53,709 bases of DNA, taken from Minisyncoccota bacterium. Its GTDB lineage: Bacteria > Patescibacteriota > Minisyncoccia > UBA6257 > JAGOQP01. The stretch lies in contig JBAZTS010000002.1 of the NCBI GenBank assembly GCA_041661795.1, positions 102,263-155,971 of the forward strand, given 5' to 3'. This document shows positions 4,514-50,754 of this stretch, piece by piece. Positions within the stretch are counted from its first letter, which is position 1; each line of letters begins with the position of its first letter. A model generated the notes under the pieces. That model was not told the DNA's origin. It saw only the letters and a program-made list of their open reading frames with translations, and did no database searches. The position numbers were made by a program, and so were the translations under genes.

Positions 4514-4600
4514 CGGAGGGTGAGAGATTTGAACTCTCGGTGGGTTTTACCCCACACACGCTTTCCAAGCGTGCGCACTAGACCACTATGCGAACCCTCC
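4514..4600 (-). tRNA. tRNA-Ser (anticodon GGA)
   Basis: The reverse complement folds as a cloverleaf: acceptor GGAGGGT/ACCCTCC, anticodon stem CACGC/GCGTG with loop TTGGAAA (anticodon GGA), long variable arm, T-arm GAGAG-TTCAAAT-CTCTC. CCA is not encoded. Confidence 0.9.
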
Positions 4601-10839: not shown

Positions 10840-12084
10840 ATGTTATTAACAGATTTATTAAAAACGGCTTTTAGGGGGATATCCACTCACAAAAGTCGGA
10901 TGGTTTTGACTATTTTGGGAATCGTTATTGGAATTACCTCTATTATGGCAATTATGTCGGTTGGAAAGAGCGCCGAGCAATTAATTTTAGGAGAAATACA
11001 AAAATTGGGTTCAAATAATGTTTTTATACTCCCGGGAAAAGAACCCAAAGGCCCGACAGACGCGGCCGGAAGTTTGATTAATGATTCTATAAAACAAAAA
11101 GACATAGATGATTTATCAAAGTCCTCAAATGTTCCTGGGGCCACAAATATTATTCCCTACGCTTTTGGATCGGTGGCTTCTTCGTTTGAATCAAACATTT
11201 ATGAGGGCATGGTAATAGGCAGTACCGAATATTCCCAAAAAAACTTTGATTTAAAAATTGAAGAAGGTAGATATTATGACCAATACGACGTTGATTCCAA
11301 ATCTAGCGTGGCGGTTATCGGGACTGAAGTTAAAAAAGAGCTTTTTGGAAACGATGATTCTATAGGAAAAAGAATTAAGGTAAATAATAGGCCGTTTCAA
11401 GTTATAGGAGTTTTAAAAAAAGAAGGAGCCGGTTCATTTATAAACTTCAATCAAGCCGTTTTAGCGCCTTATACTTCCATACAACAGGATGTTTTGGGGA
11501 TAAAATATTTCCAAAGAGTCACGGTTGAAACAAAATCCATAGAAGAAATCCCGGGTGTCATAAAAGACATAGAGACACTTTTAAGAAACAATCACGATAT
11601 CAGCGATACCGAAGAAGATGATTTTTATATTCAGACGCAAGAAAATATTGCCAACAGCGTTAAGAGCGTAACGGGAATTTTAACTGTTCTTTTGTCTTCG
11701 GTGGCGGCCATATCCCTGATTGTCGGAGGAGTGGGGATTATGAATATTATGTTTGTCTCGGTTACAGAAAGAACAAGAGAAATAGGACTGCGAAAATCTT
11801 TGGGGGCAACCAATAAAAATATTTTGACTCAGTTTTTATACGAGGCCTTAATGCTCACTTTAAGCGGAGGAATTATAGGAGTGATTTTTGGATTTTTATT
11901 AAGCTGGGGACTTTCTTGGGCGGCGCAAAAATTTGCCGACATTGATTTCCCGTTGGTCTTTTCCATACAAGGTCTTATTTTGGGAGTTGTAGTTTCGGCT
12001 GGTATAGGAATCGTTTTTGGAATATTTCCTGCCCACCAGGCCTCGAAAAAAAGTCCTGTAGAAGCATTAAGAGATGAACAGTAA
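10840..12084 (+). CDS. ABC transporter permease (MacB_PCD + FtsX domains)
   Basis: N-terminal TM segment, large extracytoplasmic domain, C-terminal FtsX motif VGGVGIMNIMFVSVTERTREIGLRKSLGA. Confidence 0.9.
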   Translation: MLLTDLLKTAFRGISTHKSRMVLTILGIVIGITSIMAIMSVGKSAEQLILGEIQKLGSNNVFILPGKEPKGPTDAAGSLINDSIKQKDIDDLSKSSNVPGATNIIPYAFGSVASSFESNIYEGMVIGSTEYSQKNFDLKIEEGRYYDQYDVDSKSSVAVIGTEVKKELFGNDDSIGKRIKVNNRPFQVIGVLKKEGAGSFINFNQAVLAPYTSIQQDVLGIKYFQRVTVETKSIEEIPGVIKDIETLLRNNHDISDTEEDDFYIQTQENIANSVKSVTGILTVLLSSVAAISLIVGGVGIMNIMFVSVTERTREIGLRKSLGATNKNILTQFLYEALMLTLSGGIIGVIFGFLLSWGLSWAAQKFADIDFPLVFSIQGLILGVVVSAGIGIVFGIFPAHQASKKSPVEALRDEQ

Positions 12085-12139: not shown

Positions 12140-13378
12140 ATGACAGTCAAAGACACAATAAAAACTTCAATATCATCTTTAAGAACCAGAAAGGGGAGGT
12201 CTATTTTGACGATCTTGGGAATAGTTATTGGTATCAGCGCTATTATGATTATTATGTCTATTGGAGGGAGCGCTCAACAGTTGATATTGAATGAAATTCA
12301 AATGTTTGGTCCGGAAAATATTTTTGTAAATCCCGGCAAGAATACGGGCGGGGCTTTTGATATATCTTCGGCGATTTTAAGCAGGTCTTTAACTAACAAA
12401 GATTTTGAGGATTTAAGCAAAAAATCAAATCTGCCGGATGCAATTTTAATAAACCCCTCAGTTAACGGTTCTGCAACTGTTTCTTACGGCTCTGAGGCAA
12501 AAACTGTTTCAATTTGGGGAACAGGAAGCGACGGTTTTGCTATATATACACTAATTCCCGAACAAGGCAGAATTTTTACACAAGAAGAAGTTAACGAAAA
12601 AGCGGCGGTTGTAGTACTGGGAAAAAAGATTGCCGAAGAATTTTTTGGCTCGCAAGATTCGATTGGAGAAAAAATAAAAATAAAGGATAAAACTTTTAGA
12701 GTTATTGGAATCTTTTCGTCAAAACTTTCTTCAATGTTTGGAGTTGAAGATTTGGTGGTTATTCCTTATACATCTGCTCAGCAATATCTAATGGGGATAA
12801 AATATTTTCAGGAAGTTGTCATAAAGGTTGGGTCAACGGAAGCGGTTCCTTCTACCGTTAGGGACATAGAACTTCTTTTGAGGGACAATCATAAAATAGA
12901 GGACTCGAACAACGATGATTTTATTATCACCACCCAAGAGGACATGATTGAAATGGTGGGAAGTATCATGGGAGCGATTACCGTTTTTCTGTCTTTAGTG
13001 GCGGCCATATCTCTAATTGTTGGAGGAGTTGGGGTTATGAATATTATGTTTGTATCAGTAACCGAAAGAACCAGAGAAATAGGACTTAGAAAAGCGTTGG
13101 GAGCAACCAATAAGAATATTTTAAGTCAGTTTCTTTTGGAATCGGTTATATTAACGGGACTTGGTGGAATTATTGGAATAATTGGAGGAGTAGTGATAAC
13201 TTTTTTAATAACGGCCGTAGCGGGAATATTTTTAGGAACCAGTTTTCCTTATTCGTTTTCTGGATTGGGAGCGATTCTTGGAATTTTGGTCTCCGGAGGA
13301 ACTGGACTTTTGTTTGGAGTTTTTCCTGCCCGCCAAGCATCTAAAAAAAGTCCGATGGAAGCTCTTCGCTACGAATAG
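12140..13378 (+). CDS. ABC transporter permease, paralog of the preceding gene
   Basis: Same architecture and the same VGGVGVMNIMFVSVTERTREIGLRKALGA motif. Confidence 0.9.
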   Translation: MTVKDTIKTSISSLRTRKGRSILTILGIVIGISAIMIIMSIGGSAQQLILNEIQMFGPENIFVNPGKNTGGAFDISSAILSRSLTNKDFEDLSKKSNLPDAILINPSVNGSATVSYGSEAKTVSIWGTGSDGFAIYTLIPEQGRIFTQEEVNEKAAVVVLGKKIAEEFFGSQDSIGEKIKIKDKTFRVIGIFSSKLSSMFGVEDLVVIPYTSAQQYLMGIKYFQEVVIKVGSTEAVPSTVRDIELLLRDNHKIEDSNNDDFIITTQEDMIEMVGSIMGAITVFLSLVAAISLIVGGVGVMNIMFVSVTERTREIGLRKALGATNKNILSQFLLESVILTGLGGIIGIIGGVVITFLITAVAGIFLGTSFPYSFSGLGAILGILVSGGTGLLFGVFPARQASKKSPMEALRYE

Positions 13379-13407: not shown

Positions 13408-13435
13408 TTGAAGAATAATTTAATTGTTCTATAAT
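13408..13435 (+). promoter_or_regulatory. Putative promoter downstream of the ABC operon
   Basis: TTGAAG (13408-13413), 16-nt spacer, TATAAT (13430-13435). Confidence 0.4.
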
Positions 13436-13515
13436 GATAATGTACTGATAACAACTAAATGAAATAATTTTGTTGGAGTGAGGCCCACAGAATCGTTTCT
13501 TTAAGTGACAAAGAT

Positions 13516-13545
13516 TCCCCTGTAAAGGGGAGTTTTTGTTTTTCG
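13516..13545 (+). terminator. Intrinsic terminator
   Basis: TCCCCT GTAA AGGGGA, followed by GTTTTTGTTTTT. Confidence 0.6.
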
Positions 13546-13562: not shown

Positions 13563-13591
13563 TTGACTTGGTTGGTGGAAATATATAAATT
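13563..13591 (+). promoter_or_regulatory. Putative promoter of the GC-rich RNA
   Basis: TTGACT (13563-13568), 17-nt spacer, TAAATT (13586-13591). The rplC promoter candidate at 30196 has the near-identical TTGACA-17-TAAATT architecture. Confidence 0.4.
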
Positions 13592-13597
13592 AAAAAC

Positions 13598-13967
13598 AGA
13601 ACCTGAAATGGGTTGCGTTGACCCCGTCTATGACAGTCGTTATTTTGCTCACTATTGCTCAATCTTCCTCCTTCCTCGCTCGCGTCTTGACTAGAAGTCG
13701 GAAGAAAGAGTGAGAGTTGAGTGACCTTTGTCAGGGAGTTCTTCACTCCTTTTGTCAACGCGACTCGTGTTAGTACCCCGCCAGCAGGGTTGTTGGCTTC
13801 TCATGGTGGTTCATTCTTCGATCGATGGCCTCCTCAAGAGCTCCATACTCGTTTCACTTTTGTCCATCAAATCGAAAAAATGCCCCACGGGAGGGTTCTC
13901 CTCTCAAGCCAACGCCCTGCGCTACACCGAGGCGGCCGTGTTTTTACCGGCCGCCTCACCTTTTTAT
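13598..13967 (+). ncRNA. Unclassified structured RNA candidate (about 370 nt, GC-rich)
   Basis: One line hand-counts at 33/60 G+C, in a genome of roughly 25-35% G+C. Long-range helices 13614-13622/13754-13762 (9 bp) and 13792-13799/13906-13913 (8 bp, plus GGG/CCC). Several hairpins have G-U pairs only on the plus strand. Ends in a 10-bp GC hairpin (13929-13957) followed by a T-run. All three plus frames are open here, as expected for non-coding GC-rich sequence. Confidence 0.55.
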
Positions 13968-14015
13968 GTGGGGTTTGAAACAACCGTGTAAAAGTTGTAT
14001 CCTTTTAATATTAAA

Positions 14016-14513
14016 ATGACTAAAAAACATCTTTTTATAATACTCTCTATATTAGCTTTCTTAGTTATTTTTTCATTTGTTTATTACAAAATAAACAGCG
14101 TTGTTGATGAAGACAATGTTATAGAAACCACGGAGGTAAATGTTTATTTTTCAAACTCAATTTTAGACCCAGAAGTTTCTTGTTCTAAAGTTTTCCCCGT
14201 CAAAAGAAAAGTTGTTAAAACCGAAGCCATAGGAAAGGCAACTCTAACAGAACTTTTCAAAGGGCCAAGTGATGAAGAAAAATCGAAAGGATATTTTTCC
14301 AGTATCAATCCGGGAGTAGTTGTTCAGTCGCTTTCTATAGCAGATGGAATAGCTAGGGCTGATTTTAATCAAGCTTTGGAATTTCAAGTAGGTGGTTCTT
14401 GCAGAGTTTCTGCCATAAGATGGGAGATTACAGAGACATTAAAACAATTTCCGACTATCAAAGACGTTGTTATTTCCATAGACGGCCGTACAGAAGACAT
14501 TCTTCAACCGTAA
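14016..14513 (+). CDS. GerMN-like domain lipo/membrane protein
   Basis: N-terminal TM segment, then VYFSN...CSKVFPVKR...ATLTELFKGPSDEEKSKGYFSSI, typical of GerMN/Gmad2-type domains. I prefer the ATG at 14016 over the TTG at 13995. Confidence 0.55.
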   Translation: MTKKHLFIILSILAFLVIFSFVYYKINSVVDEDNVIETTEVNVYFSNSILDPEVSCSKVFPVKRKVVKTEAIGKATLTELFKGPSDEEKSKGYFSSINPGVVVQSLSIADGIARADFNQALEFQVGGSCRVSAIRWEITETLKQFPTIKDVVISIDGRTEDILQP

Positions 14514-15705: not shown

Positions 15706-15802
15706 GATACCAATATACCAATGGTGCGAATGATACTAATAAATACTAAAATTTTCGCATCCATTCGTATCATTAGTAATGTTAGTATATTAGTATCATA
15801 GT
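15706..15802. repeat. About 97-bp word-array element upstream of dnaG (copy A)
   Basis: Ten hexamer words at about 9-bp spacing. Left: TACCAA x2, TGCGAA, TACTAA x2. Centre: AAAATTTT. Right: TTCGCA, TTCGTA, TTAGTA x3. Ends 3 nt before the ATG at 15806. Confidence 0.85.
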
Positions 15803-15805
15803 TTT

Positions 15806-17518
15806 ATGAACAATCCAGTACAAGAAATAAAAGAAAAATTGGACATTGTAGATATTATTAAGGAGCGCATCCCTTTGACTCCGGCTGGAAAAAATTTTAA
15901 AGCCGTTTGTCCTTTTCATAAAGAAAAAACCCCTTCCTTTATGGTTTCTCCTGACAGGCAAACTTGGCATTGTTTTGGTTCTTGCGGAGAAGGAGGAGAT
16001 GTTTTTAGTTTTGTGATGAAGTATGACAATATTGAATTTTATGAAGCGCTTAAATTGTTGGCTGAAAAAGCCGGAATAGAGTTAAAACAAATCAGTCCTT
16101 CTAGCCAAAAAGAATTTGGAGTTTTATTTGATATTAATAATTTGGCTAAAGATTTTTTTAGACAGCAATTGACGGAAAATCAGGAAGCCAATGATTATTT
16201 AGAATCAAGGCAACTTAACAAAGAAATATTGGAGGAATTTGAAATAGGATTTGCCCCCAACGCTCATGATGCGCTTTGTATTTATTTGGCCAATTTAGGA
16301 TATGACATGGTTGACTCCGAAAGGGCTGGTTTAATTTTCAAAAACGATAGGGGAACTTATCAGGACAGATTTAGAGGAAGAGTTATGTTTCCTTTGTATA
16401 ACACATTTGGGAAAGTAGTGGGATTTTCAGGAAGAATAATGCCTAAGCTTGAAAACGATAATATCGGGAAATATATCAATTCTCCGGAAACTTTGATTTT
16501 TAACAAATCAAAAATATTATACGGTTTTCATGTGACTAAACCCTTTATGAAAAGTGAGAACGAAATTATTATGGTTGAAGGCCAGATGGATTTTCTTTCT
16601 CTTTTTCAAGATGGCGTCAAAAATGCCGTGGCTGTTTCGGGAACTGCTCTTACTCAAGACCATCTTGGAATATTAAAAAGAATCAGTGAAAACATGATTA
16701 TAGGGTTTGATAACGATGAGGCGGGTTTAAACGCCACTCAAAGAGCTATAGATTTAGCTAACACCTTAGATTTCAATGTTAAAGTTTTTGTTTTGGAAGA
16801 AGCTAAAGATGCCGCAGAATTTGTATCTAAAAATCCGGGTAAGATCAAAGGACTAATAAGCAAATCCATATCGGCTCTTGATTTCTACTACAAGAGATTT
16901 TTTGAAAAAGAAGATGGTCAGGATTTAAAAAATCAAACAAGAAAGATGTTGGAAAAAATATCTCTTTTGTTAAGTCCGATAGAAAAAAGCCGATGGATAA
17001 AATATTTGTCGGAAAAAACCCATATTTCTGAAAAAGCGCTGTGGGAAGAGATGGATATGAGGAAAAAGAAAAGCTCTCAAACAAAACAATCTTTAGATGA
17101 GGTGCCGATTCAAACTGTTAAAGAAACAACCAGAATGGAAAAATTATCTTGGGAAGTTTTAACTTTAACTTTGATAGATAAGAATAAACTGGGGCTTCTT
17201 GATGATTCTCTTAGTTATTTCCCTGACCAAGCGGTGAAAGTCGTTGAATATTTTAAAAATCCTCAAAAGGATTCTGAGGTTTCTCAATTAGCGTCTGACC
17301 TAGAGATGAAAGCATCACTTAAGGCCGAGCAAGTAGATAAAGAAAAGCTTGATATTGAAATCGTCTTTTTACTAAGAGAACTAAAAAGAGAATTTTATAA
17401 AAAAAGAAGAGAGTTAATACAAGCTCAGATGAAAGAAAAAGAAAAAGAGGGGGACATGGAATCGGTGTCTAAACTTAACAAGGAATTTGACGAAGTAACA
17501 AAATTATCCGATAATTAA
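15806..17518 (+). CDS. dnaG: DNA primase
   Basis: Zinc finger CPFHKEKTPSF...HCFGCG, TOPRIM motifs EGQMD and GFDNDEAG. Confidence 0.92.
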   Translation: MNNPVQEIKEKLDIVDIIKERIPLTPAGKNFKAVCPFHKEKTPSFMVSPDRQTWHCFGSCGEGGDVFSFVMKYDNIEFYEALKLLAEKAGIELKQISPSSQKEFGVLFDINNLAKDFFRQQLTENQEANDYLESRQLNKEILEEFEIGFAPNAHDALCIYLANLGYDMVDSERAGLIFKNDRGTYQDRFRGRVMFPLYNTFGKVVGFSGRIMPKLENDNIGKYINSPETLIFNKSKILYGFHVTKPFMKSENEIIMVEGQMDFLSLFQDGVKNAVAVSGTALTQDHLGILKRISENMIIGFDNDEAGLNATQRAIDLANTLDFNVKVFVLEEAKDAAEFVSKNPGKIKGLISKSISALDFYYKRFFEKEDGQDLKNQTRKMLEKISLLLSPIEKSRWIKYLSEKTHISEKALWEEMDMRKKKSSQTKQSLDEVPIQTVKETTRMEKLSWEVLTLTLIDKNKLGLLDDSLSYFPDQAVKVVEYFKNPQKDSEVSQLASDLEMKASLKAEQVDKEKLDIEIVFLLRELKREFYKKRRELIQAQMKEKEKEGDMESVSKLNKEFDEVTKLSDN

Positions 17519-17540: not shown

Positions 17541-17636
17541 GATACCAACATACGAATGATGCGAATGATACAAATAATACGAAAATTTTAGTATCCATTT
17601 GTATCATTAGTAAAGTTAGTATATTAGTATCATAGT
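17541..17636. repeat. About 96-bp word-array element upstream of rpoD (copy B, paralog of 15706-15802)
   Basis: Aligns by eye end to end with copy A with few substitutions. Shares GCGAATGATAC...GTATCATTAGTAA-GTTAGTATATTAGTATCATAGTT. Ends 6 nt before the ATG at 17643. Confidence 0.85.
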
Positions 17637-17642
17637 TAATAT

Positions 17643-18938
17643 ATGAAAAAACAAAAGAAAAAAAGAAAGAAGACAAAATTGATTAAAAAAGTAAAGAAGA
17701 TTAAAAAGTTTAAAAAACATCTCCATAAAAAAACCTCTAAAAAGAAGGTTGTTAAGCGTGTTAAAAAACTTAAAAAGAAATCCAAAAAGAAACTTAAGAA
17801 AAAACTTAAGAAAAAAATCAAGAATTCTAAAAAGCCGATTAAAAAAATTTCAAAAGAAGTTAAATCAAAGTTTTTTGATGACCAGCAGATAACAAGTTTA
17901 GTGGAAAGGGGACGAGCCAGAGGTTTTGTTACTGACTCTGAAATTATTTCCGTTTTCCCAAATATAGAAAGCGACGTTAATTTTCTTGAAAAAATCTACG
18001 ACGAGCTGGAGAAATTTAATATAAAAGTTATTGAGGTCAATCAACTTATTGAACCAATACAGGGAAAAGAAGTTTCTCAAAAAGAAATAGAGTCCTTGGA
18101 AAGCTCCGATCTTCCCGATGCTGTTCAGATTTATTTAAAATCAATAGGAAGAACCGCTCTTTTAACCGGCCAAGAAGAAAAGGACTTGGCTAAAAGATCC
18201 GAAAAAGGAGACGAAGAAGCCAGACATAAACTTATTCAAGCCAATTTAAGATTGGTGGTTTCTATTGCCAAGCACTATGTAAATAGGAGCGCTAATTTAA
18301 GTATTTTGGATTTGATACAAGAAGGAAATATCGGTCTTTCTCGCGCCGTTGATAAATTTGATTACAGGAGGGGATTTAAGTTTTCCACCTACGCTACTTG
18401 GTGGATAAGACAGGCAATAACAAGAGCTTTAGCCGACCAATCCAGAACCATTAGAATTCCTGTCCATATGGTGGAAACTATTTCCAAATATACTCAAGTA
18501 AGAAGAAGATTGGCTCAGGAATTAGGGAGAGATCCTTTGGCGGAGGAAGTTGCCATTGAGATGGGGATATCGGTTGATAAAGTCAGACACATCCAAGAAA
18601 TTTCCCAAGAAGTTCTTTCTCTAGAAGCTCCGGTGGGAGATGATGATGAAAATTCAACCTTGTCTGAATTTATTAAAGATGAAAAAGGATTGACCCCGGA
18701 CCAAGTTACCGCTCATTCGCTTTTGAGGGAAAAAATAATAGAGATTATGAACGATTTGGCTCCAAGGGAAAGAGAAATTATCTCTATGAGATTTGGTTTG
18801 AATGATGGGGTAACTCACACTTTAGAAGAAGTTGGAAAGAAATTTGGAGTTACAAGGGAGCGTATCAGGCAAATTGAAGCCAAAGCTCTTGAAAAAATGA
18901 AAGACCACGAAAAATCCCGAGCGTTAGAGGAGTATTAA
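17643..18938 (+). CDS. rpoD: RNA polymerase sigma factor RpoD (group 1) with lysine-rich N-terminal extension
   Basis: Region 2 ([13 protein letters not shown]), region 3 and region 4 ([23 protein letters not shown]). The first 75 aa or so are almost pure K-rich low complexity. Confidence 0.92.
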
Positions 18939-27934: not shown

Positions 27935-28264
27935 ATGCCTAAAAAGGACGTTGAAAACAAAAGTAGAATACGACTAAAAATAAAATCATACGACCATCGT
28001 TTGATTGATACTTCAACCAAACAGATAATTGATACCGCTCAAAGAAACGGAGCCCAAGTAATTGGTCCGATTCCTTTACCGACGGAAATCAGGAAGTATA
28101 CCGTCAATCGTTCAACTTTTGTTCATAAAAATTCCAGAGAACAGTTTGAAATGAGAGTCCATAAACGTCTGATAGAAATATTAGACCCCGGGCAAAAGAT
28201 TGTAGAATCACTTTCCAGTTTGTCATTACCTTCGGGAGTGGAAGTGGAAATAAAAATGATTTAA
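27935..28264 (+). CDS. rpsJ: 30S ribosomal protein S10
   Basis: RIRLKIKSYDHRLIDTSTKQIIDTAQRNGAQVIGPIPLPT. Confidence 0.95.
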   Translation: MPKKDVENKSRIRLKIKSYDHRLIDTSTKQIIDTAQRNGAQVIGPIPLPTEIRKYTVNRSTFVHKNSREQFEMRVHKRLIEILDPGQKIVESLSSLSLPSGVEVEIKMI

Positions 28265-28301: not shown

Positions 28302-29282
28302 TTGATGAATATAATAACCCAAGATCCTCTTAATGTATTAAAATCTACAAAAGCTGTGCTTGAAAAAGCTCAGTTTGTTTCGATTAACCAGGATAATATA
28401 CAAACGATAGCTAATCAGCTTTTGGAAGATTGTGAAGAAAAATTAAATAGCATGAAGAAGGATTTTCATTTAGCGGGAAATCTTGAGGATAATTTACAAT
28501 TAGTTTTTATTGAAGACGTGGTAAATTTCTGTTTTTGGGCAGACAAAGATAAATTTAAATGGCAAACGGAATGGCCTAGTGGGAATATTATATTCGGAGG
28601 ATGGTACTCTCTAAAAAGTTGTTTTGAGCGGGCATTACATAATAAAGTTCCTATTTTGGATGCCAATTATTTGTCGTCCATATCATCAGAAGATGCCAAG
28701 AACTTTTTTAAGGGCGTAGACGATACCCAGATTCCTCTTCTTGAAAATAGAACAGATAATTTAAGAGAAGCTGGGAAAATATTACTTAGTGAATTTAACG
28801 GAAAATTCGTTAATGTTTTAGAAGCTTCCGAATTTGACGCCATTAAGCTTGTTCAACTAATAATCAAATACTTCCCATCATTTAGAGACATCTCGGTTAT
28901 TGAAGGGAATGAAGTTTTTTTCTTAAAAAGGGCTCAGATATGTGCTTGTGATGTTTCTTATTTGTTGAAAAAAGATAAGTTATCCAATTTTCCTCTGTTA
29001 ACGGCATTTGCCGATTATAAATTGCCTCAGATTTTGAGAATGTTTGATATTATAGAATATAGTGATGATTTGGCTAAAAAGATAGATAACATGGAAGAAA
29101 TACCTCATGACAGTCGTGAAGAAATAGAAATAAGATCTGCTACTATTTGGGCGGTTGAATTAATACGTCAAAAAATTGGCAAAATGCCAACGAGTAATAT
29201 TGACAACCTCCTATGGTTAATGAGTCAAAAGATTCAAGATAAAGCAAAACCGTATCATAGGACAAGAACTATATATTATTAA
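28302..29282 (+). CDS. Queuosine salvage protein (DUF2419 / QNG1-like queuosine 5'-phosphate N-glycosylase family)
   Basis: FCFW, FFLKRAQICACDV, LTAFADYKLPQILRMFDIIEYS and SREEIEIRSATIWAVE match recalled DUF2419 conservation. An alternative ATG start lies at 28305. Confidence 0.7.
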   Translation: MMNIITQDPLNVLKSTKAVLEKAQFVSINQDNIQTIANQLLEDCEEKLNSMKKDFHLAGNLEDNLQLVFIEDVVNFCFWADKDKFKWQTEWPSGNIIFGGWYSLKSCFERALHNKVPILDANYLSSISSEDAKNFFKGVDDTQIPLLENRTDNLREAGKILLSEFNGKFVNVLEASEFDAIKLVQLIIKYFPSFRDISVIEGNEVFFLKRAQICACDVSYLLKKDKLSNFPLLTAFADYKLPQILRMFDIIEYSDDLAKKIDNMEEIPHDSREEIEIRSATIWAVELIRQKIGKMPTSNIDNLLWLMSQKIQDKAKPYHRTRTIYY

Positions 29283-29292
29283 TAAAATTTCA

Positions 29293-29320
29293 AAGGGCTC
29301 CTTGCGGGAGCCCTTGTTTG
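29293..29320. terminator. Bidirectional terminator between the queuosine-salvage gene and the GC-rich operon
   Basis: AAGGGCTCC (29293-29301) pairs with GGAGCCCTT (29307-29315). T-rich sequence follows on both strands. Confidence 0.6.
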
Positions 29321-29348
29321 TGGGGTGCGGAATGGTGTGTTCAATTAC

Positions 29349-29612
29349 TTACTTCTCGTGGAGGCGGCCATGAAACCACCAACGCAGAGAAAAATATGTT
29401 CTCACAAACTCCGGAATGACAAACCGAAGTCCGCAGATTGCGCAGTGGATGGCATTGTGGGCTTTAGAGATCCGGTGGATCTCTATCTGTCCACCGCAGA
29501 TGCCGTGTTTGCCGATCGCTCCTGAAGGCGGAAGAAGGTTCTCGTCCTTCACCTTACTTCCGGATAACTCATCAAGCGTTCCTTCCTCTGGACTGAAAAC
29601 TATAGGTCTCAC
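29349..29612 (-). CDS. Hypothetical zinc-ribbon-like protein (third gene of the GC-rich operon)
   Basis: GTG start preceded by AAGGAGAA. KHGICGG-x16-HCAICG resembles a YgiT/MqsA-type zinc ribbon. GC-rich codon usage. Confidence 0.5.
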   Translation of the reverse strand: MRPIVFSPEEGTLDELSGSKVKDENLLPPSGAIGKHGICGGQIEIHRISKAHNAIHCAICGLRFVIPEFVRTYFSLRWWFHGRLHEK

Positions 29613-29626
29613 GGTTTCTCCTTTTT

Positions 29627-29857
29627 TTAGTTGTCACCGAGGTAGACATTGCGTACGGCGAACAGGGACGGGTCGCAGATGAGCCCCAATCTTTTTCTCA
29701 AAAAGAGGATAAAGTTGATAGCTTGTTCCTTTCTGCAACCAACGGCTTGAAGATGTCTGTGATACTTGTCTCTGGCCCAGAACATCGGGGGATCATCTGG
29801 ACTTCCCCCGAGAAGGCCGACGTCGATGGTCATCGGGTCTTCGCTGGTCAAAATCAT
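29627..29857 (-). CDS. Hypothetical protein (second gene of the GC-rich operon)
   Basis: ATG preceded by AAGGAGGGAG. 76 aa. No family recognised. Confidence 0.5.
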   Translation of the reverse strand: MILTSEDPMTIDVGLLGGSPDDPPMFWARDKYHRHLQAVGCRKEQAINFILFLRKRLGLICDPSLFAVRNVYLGDN

Positions 29858-29874
29858 AGCTCCCTCCTTTGAAG

Positions 29875-30102
29875 TTAAGCGTTGTTGGCCTTACTGTAAG
29901 ATAGCGCCTTCTTACTGAAGGTTACCTTACAGTATCTCGAGTTTATGTTGTACTTCTTAAGAAGAAGAACAAGGGCCTCTTCTCCAGTTGAGCCGAATTC
30001 CACTGTTTCGGGAGATGATTGGAGACGGGCGAAAAATGACCCATTTCCTCCAATCTCCTCTGGTGAAAAATACCCGACTTGGATTGTTATTATTTCCGGC
30101 AT
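29875..30102 (-). CDS. HicB/DUF1902-like small protein (first gene of the GC-rich operon)
   Basis: ATG preceded by AAAGGAGAGG. IITIQVGYFSPEEIGGNGSFFARLQSSPETVEFGSTGEEALVLL resembles the HicB-N / UPF0150 antitoxin-like fold pattern. Confidence 0.5.
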   Translation of the reverse strand: MPEIITIQVGYFSPEEIGGNGSFFARLQSSPETVEFGSTGEEALVLLLKKYNINSRYCKVTFSKKALSYSKANNA

Positions 30103-30260: not shown

Positions 30261-30292
30261 GGCCAAGGACATTGTCTTTGGGCCGATTTTTA
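30261..30292 (+). promoter_or_regulatory. Terminator-like hairpin in the rplC leader (possible attenuator)
   Basis: GGCCAAGGAC ATT GTCTTTGGGCC (one bulged G), followed by GATTTTTATT. Lies 16 nt upstream of the rplC ATG. Confidence 0.4.
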
Positions 30293-30307
30293 TTGAAGTG
30301 CAAAAAT

Positions 30308-30913
30308 ATGTTTCTAATAGGAAAAAAAGTTAATATGGACCAAGTTTGGGAAGGAAGCAAAGTTATACCGGTTACCGTAATTGAAGCCGGTCCTGTTGTT
30401 ATTACCCAAGTCAAAGGAAAAGAAAAAGATGGTTACGATGCATTTCAATTGGGTTATGACACTTCCATTAAAAAAATAACCAAACCAATGGCCGGACATT
30501 TAAAGGAATTGGGAAAATTCAGGCACATAAAAGAATTTAAAAAGAAATCAAAGGAACAGAATTACAACGTCGGTGACACCATTGACGTTTCTGTTTTTTC
30601 TAAAGGAGATAAATTAACAATTGTCGGATATGAAAAAGGAAGAGGATTCCAAGGTGTTGTTAAAAGGCACGGATTTCACGGAGGACCAAAAACTCATGGA
30701 CAAAAAAATCGTCTAAGAGCCGGAGGATCATTGGGAGCTACCGCTCCACAAAGAGTTATCAAGGGAAGAAAGATGGCCGGAAGAATGGGAGTGGAAAGAG
30801 TTACTTTAAAAAATGTTTTGGTTGTAGGTGTTGATAAAGAAAAAAACCAATTAATCATAAAGGGTCCGGTTCCCGGAAATAAAAAATCAATTATTTTAAT
30901 AGAAAAGCAATAA
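30308..30913 (+). CDS. rplC: 50S ribosomal protein L3
   Basis: MFLIGKKVNMDQVWEGSKVIPVTVIEAGP matches the canonical L3 N-terminus. I chose the ATG at 30308 rather than the ORF-track start at 30272. Confidence 0.93.
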   Translation: MFLIGKKVNMDQVWEGSKVIPVTVIEAGPVVITQVKGKEKDGYDAFQLGYDTSIKKITKPMAGHLKELGKFRHIKEFKKKSKEQNYNVGDTIDVSVFSKGDKLTIVGYEKGRGFQGVVKRHGFHGGPKTHGQKNRLRAGGSLGATAPQRVIKGRKMAGRMGVERVTLKNVLVVGVDKEKNQLIIKGPVPGNKKSIILIEKQ

Positions 30914-50123: not shown

Positions 50124-50616
50124 ACTATTGTGGTTACCAAAAATTATAGAACTTACTGATTTTGGTGGCAATTTTTTATTATATCAGGATTATCTCTATT
50201 CTATTTTTAAGAGAGATTTTATAGATAGTTTTCCAAAACTTGGCAGAAGCCCAGTTTTTCATTTTAAAGAAGATACCAATGGTAAACGAAATATATTTTG
50301 GCATTTAACGACAGAAATAGATCAAACCAATAATCAAAGGAATAGCGACCTCAGAAGATGCGAGAGATTGGTCTGGATAAGACCAATAATAAAAAATTAT
50401 TTAGAACCAGAAATTTTTTATTGGGAGAAAACAAACAAAAAAGAGATAAGATCTTATCTGTTTATTCCAGATGTTAACTATTTAATAATATTAAAAAAAA
50501 CAAAAACTATCTATTATTTAATTACCGCTTATCCTATAAATTACGAAAATAAAAAAGAACGATTTTTAAAGGAAGCCGAATTCTATAATCCTAAAAATGC
50601 AAAAACCGCCTTATAG
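50113..50616 (+). CDS. Hypothetical protein whose reading frame overlaps the DUF3800 gene
   Basis: Overlaps the upstream gene by 11 nt. 167 aa. FWHLTT...DLRRCERLVWIRPII...YLITAYP. No family recognised. Confidence 0.5.
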   Translation: MNAKLLWLPKIIELTDFGGNFLLYQDYLYSIFKRDFIDSFPKLGRSPVFHFKEDTNGKRNIFWHLTTEIDQTNNQRNSDLRRCERLVWIRPIIKNYLEPEIFYWEKTNKKEIRSYLFIPDVNYLIILKKTKTIYYLITAYPINYENKKERFLKEAEFYNPKNAKTAL

Positions 50617-50624
50617 CGGTTTTT
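50602..50624 (+). terminator. Intrinsic terminator overlapping the stop codon
   Basis: AAAACCGC CTTATA GCGGTTTT. Confidence 0.55.
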
Positions 50625-50754
50625 GGGCTCCTTTTACCAATGGTAAATGAGATAAGTTCATTGTATCACTATTTACAGCTTTTACAATAAAATTGTGGAT
50701 AACTTATTTTTTTAAATAATTTCAAATTGTCGATCTTATTCTTGCAAATTAGCC

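Follow-up and report, generated by a model that had tools for sequence, protein, structure and literature searches.

A candidate two-domain structured RNA outside described families in an uncultivated Patescibacterium

Introduction

Bacteria encode large non-coding RNAs (ncRNAs), OLE, ROOL, GOLLD and raiA among them. Structured ncRNA candidates have been identified in the long GC-rich intergenic regions (GC-IGRs) of AT-rich bacteria, and the finds made by this approach include further large ncRNAs whose function is unknown, the smtA motif being one (PMC6429828, PMC8632094, PMC11109978). Here we analyse a GC-rich element at positions 13598–13966 of a 53,709-nt stretch of contig JBAZTS010000002.1 (hereafter the window, numbered from its first nucleotide), which belongs to an uncultivated bacterium of the Patescibacteria, or candidate phyla radiation (CPR). 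Like the GC-IGR candidates, the element occupies a long intergenic region with a G+C content far above that of the genome and with no open reading frame (ORF) or BLASTX-type match, and like the large ncRNAs among them it has a strong multi-helix predicted fold and appears too large and too stably closed for a typical riboswitch. The GC-IGR classes differ from it in having many representatives with covariation, whereas the element is a single sequence that none of their Rfam models matches. Its host also belongs to the Patescibacteria, while the text of the 2024 GC-IGR survey contains neither ‘Patescibacteria’ nor ‘candidate phyla’ (PMC11109978). We describe the element as an orphan structured ncRNA candidate of the GC-IGR kind, outside every described family, and as a credible yet unproven RNA gene.

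Three other systems invite comparison. At Rfam thresholds, RNase P RNA readily escapes notice in CPR bacteria: in 10 of 35 circularised CPR genomes its detection needed lowered Infernal thresholds, and helices were missing (Lui et al. 2021, PMC8172020). The element resembles this RNA in length and as a GC-rich, apparently stand-alone gene, but lacks CR-I, CR-V, P4, P1 end pairing and even a sub-threshold Rfam match. It is predicted to fold into two independent three-way junctions, whereas RNase P RNA consists of a P1-closed catalytic domain and a specificity domain.

ON-type riboswitches and tandem aptamers are exemplified by the pbuE adenine and glycine riboswitches. As in such leaders, tandem three-way junctions are followed in the element by an intrinsic terminator just 5′ of a gene, and the strand flanking the second domain is predicted to be capable of pairing with the 5′ arm of the terminator. 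In contrast to riboswitches, the element has domains of 140–170 nt with closing helices of 15–19 bp, shows no match to a conserved aptamer core, is not conserved upstream of homologous genes and carries its terminator outside the main closing helix. Staphylococcus RNAIII and the Rsa RNAs are large multi-hairpin regulators of Gram-positive bacteria with C/U-rich loops that pair with Shine–Dalgarno regions. The element shares with them a length of several hundred nucleotides, a predicted promoter and terminator of its own, a pyrimidine-rich composition and a loop-exposed CCUCCU, but no sequence similarity, and pairing of the RNAIII kind is unlikely here because 40 of 41 genes lack a Shine–Dalgarno motif.

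Results

Composition and predicted fold of the element

An initial annotation of the window had marked a patch of high G+C between an ABC efflux operon and the GerMN–alr genes and had proposed that it encodes a structured RNA. The composition profile bears out the patch. The element (13598–13966) has a G+C content of 51% compared with 35% for the genome (window mean 34.8%, that is, 0.348 over 53.7 kb), and 200-nt windows across 13600–13999 range from 0.495 to 0.51, with flanks at 0.27–0.41. Only two patches in the 53.7 kb reach 0.55, one of which is 13601–14025. At 0.51, the element comes close to the window's tRNA-Ser gene (0.56), and coding DNA lies far lower (0.33–0.38).

Folding of the plus strand (381 nt) gave a minimum free energy (MFE) of −140.8 kcal/mol with 121 bp and z = −6.5 relative to 100 dinucleotide shuffles, while the minus strand gave −136.7 kcal/mol and z = −4.8. 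In a windowed scan, the element marked the extreme of the distribution (z of −7.1 on the plus and −5.1 on the minus strand), about 5 standard deviations (s.d.) past the background of 118 other 370-nt windows of the same DNA, taken on both strands (mean z −0.43, s.d. 1.32). High G+C is not the cause of the strong fold, as a control patch of equal G+C (29301–29870) reached a z of only −0.7 to −1.6. Each of the two predicted domains described below also folded strongly when taken alone (z of −4.43 for domain 1 and −4.60 for domain 2, with 0 of 200 shuffles as stable for each), and the ensemble is well defined, with a mean positional entropy of 0.34. As modelled, the fold is far beyond chance and by far the best predicted in its neighbourhood, in line with the structure that the initial annotation had noticed.

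The plus strand is favoured on four grounds: the terminator has its U-run on this strand only, a promoter-like site lies on it, its z is lower and its fold contains more G–U pairs (16 of 121 pairs in the plus-strand MFE structure versus 8 of 116 on the minus strand). The argument for the plus strand had originally been made from G–U pairs in five helices read by eye, and the full folds uphold it. This asymmetry points to selection at the RNA level.

Predicted two-domain architecture

The predicted structured transcript is about 370 nt long (13598–13966, plus strand), as judged from G+C, MFE, z, the lack of coding signal and the lack of an Rfam match. In the MFE fold, it comprises two three-way junctions on the plus strand. 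The first, domain 1 (13603–13773), is closed by a predicted helix of 19 bp (4 + 15; 13603–13606/13770–13773 plus 13608–13622/13754–13768). The core of its 15-bp part, TGCGTTGAC (13614–13622) with GTCAACGCG (13754–13762), is one of two long-range pairings that had been proposed by eye, and both recur in the computed structure. Within domain 1 lie a long irregular hairpin (13631–13733; 103 nt, seven helical segments, 36 bp) and a 6-bp hairpin (13734–13750; GGGAGU-UCUUC-ACUCCU). A 10-nt linker between the domains, UACCCCGCCA (13774–13783), is unpaired in the full-length MFE structure, with an unpaired probability of ~0.9.

Domain 2 (13780–13922) would be closed by helices of 2, 7 and 8 bp (13780–13781/13921–13922, 13784–13790/13914–13920 and 13792–13799/13906–13913). 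The last of these is the second pairing proposed by eye, GTTGGCTT (13792–13799) with AAGCCAAC (13906–13913), and the 7-bp helix is its extension. The domain contains a long predicted hairpin (13806–13888; 83 nt), whose large apical region exposes CCUCCUC (13829–13835) and the palindrome GAGCUC, and a 6-bp hairpin (13889–13905; GGGAGG-GUUCU-CCUCUC). Among the local hairpins of the initial annotation, those near 13734–13750 and at 13889–13905 are present in the MFE structure, whereas the one at 13781–13798 is absent and its bases take part in the long-range helix.

Both domains follow a common plan, in which a long helix closes off a long irregular hairpin together with a 6-bp GGGAG hairpin capped by a pyrimidine loop of 5 nt. 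When domain 1 was used to build a covariance model, the model aligned to domain 2 in register, albeit weakly (4.2 bits, E = 0.076), and alignment of the two domains with MAFFT revealed no convincing identity. The models suggest a common architecture, with duplication undemonstrated. Few elements of the fold are robustly single-stranded. They are the junction CCCGUCUA, of 8 nt, the linker UACCCCGCCA and, in domain 2, the large apical loop that carries CCUCCUC and the GAGCUC palindrome.

Transcription signals

A sigma-70-like promoter, TTGACT-17-TAAATT, was found at 13563–13591 on the plus strand, where it had been annotated at the outset. It matches 9 of 12 consensus positions, has an alternative −10 box (TATAAA, 13584–13589) and predicts a transcription start near 13597–13600. 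The promoter is weak evidence by itself because promoter-like hexamers are common in AT-rich spacers. At the other end, an inverted-repeat search recovered the previously annotated intrinsic terminator (13929–13966, plus strand), a perfect 10-bp stem with nine G–C pairs and a 9-nt loop, followed by ACCUUUUUAU; its arms are GAGGCGGCCG (13929–13938) and CGGCCGCCUC (13948–13957), with ACCTTTTTAT after them. A custom scan found only two strong GC-hairpin and T-run sites in the 53.7 kb, of which the element's alone lies on the plus strand. The second, at 50600–50625 on the minus strand (CAAAAACCGC-TATAAG-GCGGTTTTTG), is probably bidirectional, because its hairpin stands between an A-run and a T-run and is located at a convergent gene junction.

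Upstream, a terminator scan and the inverted-repeat search located a terminator-like hairpin with a T-run (13515–13541, plus strand) 3′ of the MacB-type ABC operon, which may insulate the RNA unit against upstream transcription. No sigma-70 match in the region is better than TTGAAG-16-TATAAT (10 of 12), which is found between the stop codon of that operon and this hairpin; together, they (13408–13541) could form a separate AT-rich transcript of ~100 nt or be a coincidence. Downstream of the element, a weak promoter-like site, TTGAAA-17-TATCCT (13975–14003, plus strand, 9 of 12), precedes the GerM start codon at 14016. If this site were used, GerM–alr would have a promoter of its own and a very short leader.

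Host and genomic context

The host is a deep-branching, ultrasmall and uncultivated Patescibacterium. Its RpoD has best matches of 73% and ~60% identity, to metagenome-assembled genomes (MAGs) labelled Saccharibacteria, Patescibacteria, Moraniibacteriota and similar. The closest relatives of the Alr and GerM proteins in a collection of 5.8 billion proteins are 57–59% identical over their full length, and those of them with a source name are labelled Pacebacteria/Paceibacterota or Patescibacteria.

The same population is represented by an ENA assembly, two Logan assemblies and the NCBI MAG GCA_041664185.1, whose sequences agree to 99.99–100% wherever they were compared. Two of these other assemblies (ENA and Logan) contain the RNA stretch with 100% identity, so that it is real DNA and no assembly artefact; the comparison with GCA_041664185.1 (99.99% identity across the 11.6 kb comparable) ends before the RNA.

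All genes around the element are on the plus strand. Upstream are those for an HlyD-like adaptor, an ABC ATPase and two MacB/FtsX permeases (stop codon at 13378), and downstream are GerM (14016–14513), alr, dnaG, rpoD and alaS. The flanking genes are complete, and the gene calls of the public contigs leave the region of the element empty. A Shine–Dalgarno-like motif within 20 nt of the start codon was present in 1 of 41 native genes, and GerM has none. The native upstream regions are A/T-rich and, by eye, several show a TATAAT-like box only a few bases ahead of the ATG (22099 and 47750 are examples), a pattern suggesting that translation in this Patescibacterium starts on transcripts with no leader or a short one.

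Two repeats were seen in the neighbourhood. An AT-rich, partly palindromic element of ~130 nt occurs in the alr–dnaG spacer (15706–15836) and again in the dnaG–rpoD spacer (17541–17668) with 83.6% identity, and with one copy inverted the two again match (76%); they may be a shared promoter/operator or belong to a small repeat family. The tandem MacB/FtsX permease genes share a 153-nt stretch (11683–11835 and 12980–13132) with 85% DNA identity, consistent with tandem gene duplication.

Relation to the downstream GerM–alr genes

The position of the element raises the possibility, which we regard as improbable though the strongest of the alternatives, that it is a cis-acting attenuation leader of GerM–alr(–dnaG–rpoD). 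The promoter at 13563 would then drive the operon and the structured region would sense a ligand, a protein or an RNA, with the terminator (13929–13966) either formed or bypassed through an antiterminator between CCGCC of the linker (13778–13782) and GGCGG (13931–13935). The terminator is indeed located 50 nt 5′ of the GerM start on the same strand, with only the weak promoter-like site in between, and once the 3′ arm of the terminator is removed, its GGCGG-containing 5′ arm is predicted to pair with the linker CCGCC with a probability of ~0.95. Such an arrangement is like that of ON-type riboswitches, in which the 3′ strand of the aptamer closing helix overlaps the terminator, and the tandem three-way junctions recall tandem aptamers. 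However, a 5-nt complement to a GC-rich arm is within chance expectation (estimate 0.4–0.9), forcing the other antiterminator candidate (13826–13835 with 13929–13938) costs ~28 kcal/mol, and the closing helices (15 bp; 7 + 8 bp) and the 10-bp GC terminator appear too stable for a switch. Furthermore, even at E ≤ 10 the element has no match among riboswitch, T-box or leader families. A leader of 420 nt would be atypical for a genome without Shine–Dalgarno motifs in which −10-like boxes, as judged by eye, stand near a few start codons, and the weak site TTGAAA-17-TATCCT could provide GerM with a short one instead.

The relatives also speak against a leader, as alr and GerM homologues of other Patescibacteria have no long upstream spacer. 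At five alr loci (three look-ups) and seven GerM loci (three look-ups), the spacers are short and contain no GC-rich element. As the syntenic positions of relatives are without it, the element is not a conserved GerM/alr leader. The leader function that had been offered as an alternative in the initial annotation is therefore weakened by the relatives and by the short leaders expected of this genome, though the 5-bp pairing might still serve as its antiterminator.

Homologue searches and the possibility of foreign DNA

Searches with nhmmer and blastn found no homologue in 80 rpoD loci from GTDB genomes, in five loci of alr relatives or in the window itself, which holds no second copy. Two calibrated single-sequence covariance models (R1 and R2) found nothing in 1.22 Mb of loci, including Patescibacteria rpoD, alr and GerM loci, and the R2 model, built on domain 1, had no match in a further 9 kb of the contig that contains the window. 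BLAST in distant mode against phage and plasmid collections gave no match. Exact and degenerate pattern scans of genome, metagenome and viral contigs returned counts at chance level, none of which was extended by nhmmer. The only other copies are in near-identical contigs of the same population.

Absence from all relatives examined would fit a remnant, devoid of function, of DNA acquired horizontally or from a mobile element, for instance the decayed end of an insert that brought the terminator along, an origin that we consider doubtful and unlikely. The strong fold of such a remnant would have nothing to do with a function in the present host. The G+C and strand skews of the element are sharply unlike native DNA, and a weak direct repeat of 14 nt flanks it (13585–13598 and 14016–14029, 79% identity). 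Foreign DNA does enter this genome, because the minus-strand ORFs of a second GC-rich patch (29349–30102) are led by strong Shine–Dalgarno motifs, which native genes lack. Against a relic stand the lack of any six-frame protein similarity and of any match in the phage, plasmid, viral, genome and metagenome sequences probed. The element is single-copy within the window and the further 9 kb, has no terminal inverted repeats of the kind expected of a miniature inverted-repeat transposable element, and adjoins no transposase or integrase. Moreover, the foreign-looking patch folds with a z of ~−1 whereas the element is ~5 s.d. beyond background, and the G–U asymmetry argues for selection on an RNA.

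The second patch was also characterized in its own right. The region 29301–30102 reaches up to 0.55 G+C and contains three minus-strand ORFs of 75, 76 and 87 amino acids, of which the 75- and 76-residue ORFs follow strong Shine–Dalgarno motifs (for example, AAGGAGGGAGCTATG). Together with a plus-strand ORF of 326 amino acids (28302–29282), it interrupts the usual rpsJ (27935–28264)/rplC (30272–30913) junction. No match was found for this cassette in Pfam, NCBIfam, PHROG or PADLOC, and it looks like a horizontally acquired cassette. Its fold is unremarkable (z ~−1). Aside from windows overlapping the element, the lowest z of the scan was that of 29701–30070 (−3.8 on the plus and −3.0 on the minus strand), a window that shares sequence with the 5′ end of the minus-strand cassette and with the spacer preceding rplC.

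Known RNA families

A scan of the whole window with Rfam 15 at gathering thresholds returned only the tRNA-Ser gene (4514–4600, minus strand). Permissive scans (E ≤ 10) of 751 nt and 379 nt gave only chance-level matches, to snoRNA and miRNA models and, at best, to COG2908 (19 bits, where the gathering score is 58.7). The element therefore matches no Rfam family at either setting, the check that had been proposed for it initially.

That the element is an extremely diverged form of a universal RNA of comparable length, RNase P RNA or transfer-messenger RNA (tmRNA) for example, is highly improbable. A length of ~330–370 nt, a predicted promoter and terminator of its own and GC enrichment would suit a housekeeping RNA. 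However, no RNase P, tmRNA, signal recognition particle (SRP) or 6S model matched the 379 nt at E ≤ 10 with permissive filters, and the side-by-side two-domain topology fits neither RNase P RNA nor tmRNA. For RNase P RNA (RF00010/RF00011), there was no covariance-model match at the gathering score or at E ≤ 10, and by sequence reading no CR-I-like GAGGAAAGUCC motif exists on either strand. The initial annotation had likewise missed the motifs of both RNAs, and neither is recognizable by Rfam, ARAGORN or sequence reading. Its statement that ACAGAA is missing was incorrect, as this motif is present at 13596–13601, but at the 5′ edge and outside an RNase P context. With CR-I absent and ACAGAA, which belongs to the CR-V motif ACAGAA..GGCUUA, only at the extreme 5′ edge, no P4 is possible, and because the 5′ and 3′ ends are unpaired in the folds of both strands there is no P1 or acceptor stem. 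For tmRNA (RF00023 and permuted forms), ARAGORN reported nothing by default or at 80% thresholds and implausible AT-rich calls at 60%, and there was no Rfam match.

Several further RNA types were considered and rejected. SRP RNA and 6S RNA gave no match at E ≤ 10, and the element is predicted to form a pair of three-way junctions where these RNAs would form a centrally bubbled rod. Models of riboswitches, T-boxes and ribosomal-protein leaders gave only chance-level matches at E ≤ 10. A group I intron was rejected on the grounds that the flanking genes are complete, that the intron mode of ARAGORN returned AT-rich mismatched pseudo-tRNAs and that Intron_gpI did not match. No cognate copy of the kind required for the template repeat of a diversity-generating retroelement was found by self-BLAST or nhmmer of the patch against the window. 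A CsrB-like GGA sponge on the minus strand would have ~8 GGA motifs by hand count versus ~9 expected from composition, and these motifs are therefore not enriched. Finally, an anti-Shine–Dalgarno seed RNA acting through the CCUCCU loop was rejected, with Shine–Dalgarno motifs in only 1 of 41 native genes and an RNAduplex target ranking no better than that of a decoy.

Coding potential

Three mutually overlapping ORFs are open on the plus strand (13721–13978, 13728–13991 and 13825–14019), as the initial annotation had noted when it called the region non-coding. That call is supported by the absence of periodicity and of any Pfam or protein match. The 3-base periodicity of the element is 0.94, compared with ~2–8 for four of five coding controls (the fifth gave 0.35), and a Pfam search with five ORFs gave no match. 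The concatenated six-frame translation found nothing at E ≤ 1 among 5.8 billion proteins, and an 85-amino-acid ORF had no match among 1.84 billion cluster representatives.

There is thus very little to recommend a coding function in the form of the 85-amino-acid plus-strand ORF (13721–13978) or of short minus-strand ORFs behind GGAGG-like motifs: ORFs of 64–87 amino acids are open in all three plus-strand frames, GGAGG-like motifs do occur on the minus strand and the ABC operon upstream resembles a peptide exporter, but periodicity, Pfam matches and homologues are lacking in the searches above, the ORFs overlap each other, run through the terminator hairpin and are uncalled in the public contigs, and chance alone is expected to leave long ORFs in a sequence this rich in G+C.

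Discussion

On balance, the evidence leans, by a little, towards 13598–13966 (plus strand) being an independently transcribed, lineage-specific structured ncRNA of ~330–370 nt that belongs to no described family. The element departs from its genome in composition, folds far more stably than shuffled or neighbouring sequence, carries no coding signal, has promoter and terminator signals at its two ends and is absent from Rfam. Because of these end signals and the insulation by two terminators, an independent transcription unit is the best fit. We infer that the element is transcribed, with the plus strand as the active strand, and that the RNA works in trans. Somewhat more tentatively, with chances just short of even, it may be the first member, and to date the sole sequenced one, of a new class, a large, stable, trans-acting two-domain ncRNA of Patescibacteria that perhaps serves as a protein scaffold or a ribozyme.

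If the element is such a transcript, transcription would start ~6–9 nt past TTGACT-17-TAAATT, insulated by the terminator of the ABC operon (13515–13541). The RNA would fold co-transcriptionally into two similarly built three-way-junction domains, and transcription would end at the 10-bp GC hairpin and U-run. Our best guess at its role is that of a protein-binding or scaffold RNA, which would present CCCGUCUA, UACCCCGCCA and the domain-2 apical loop. We prefer this role to that of an antisense RNA that occludes Shine–Dalgarno sites because native genes lack such sites.

Several observations weigh against an independently transcribed ncRNA. The plus strand of the element is 58% pyrimidine, with more C than G, and such a pyrimidine excess is unusual for stable structured RNAs. 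Its GC skew of −0.11 and AT skew of −0.21 stand out from the neighbouring plus-strand genes, which are all purine-rich (52–60% purine), and this skew is that expected of minus-strand or foreign DNA in the host genome. Promoter-like sites are frequent in the surrounding 1-kb region (5, against 1.4 expected), and at least one further GC-rich patch of this genome is evidently coding DNA of foreign origin. No homologue was found in any database searched, and hence there is no support from conservation or covariation. By the criteria applied to GC-IGRs, a single representative ranks as an ‘unnamed’ or ‘low-ranking candidate’ (PMC11109978).

For the present, the element is a well-supported singleton candidate, and its value is as a target for metatranscriptome mapping and a deeper homology search. 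Patescibacteria make up a large share of bacterial diversity, and their genomes, of ~1 Mb, contain hardly any non-coding DNA. For so small a genome it would be costly to keep a 370-nt RNA along with a promoter for it and a terminator that is among the strongest of the region, which is a hint of function. In the literature on CPR ncRNAs, we found almost nothing beyond rRNA, tRNA and diverged RNase P RNAs. To our knowledge, few large ncRNAs whose function is unknown occur in bacteria, and all have turned out to be of biological or structural interest. Should the element be shown to be transcribed and to have relatives, it would provide a first handle on the lineage-specific RNA biology of this uncultivated group of episymbionts.

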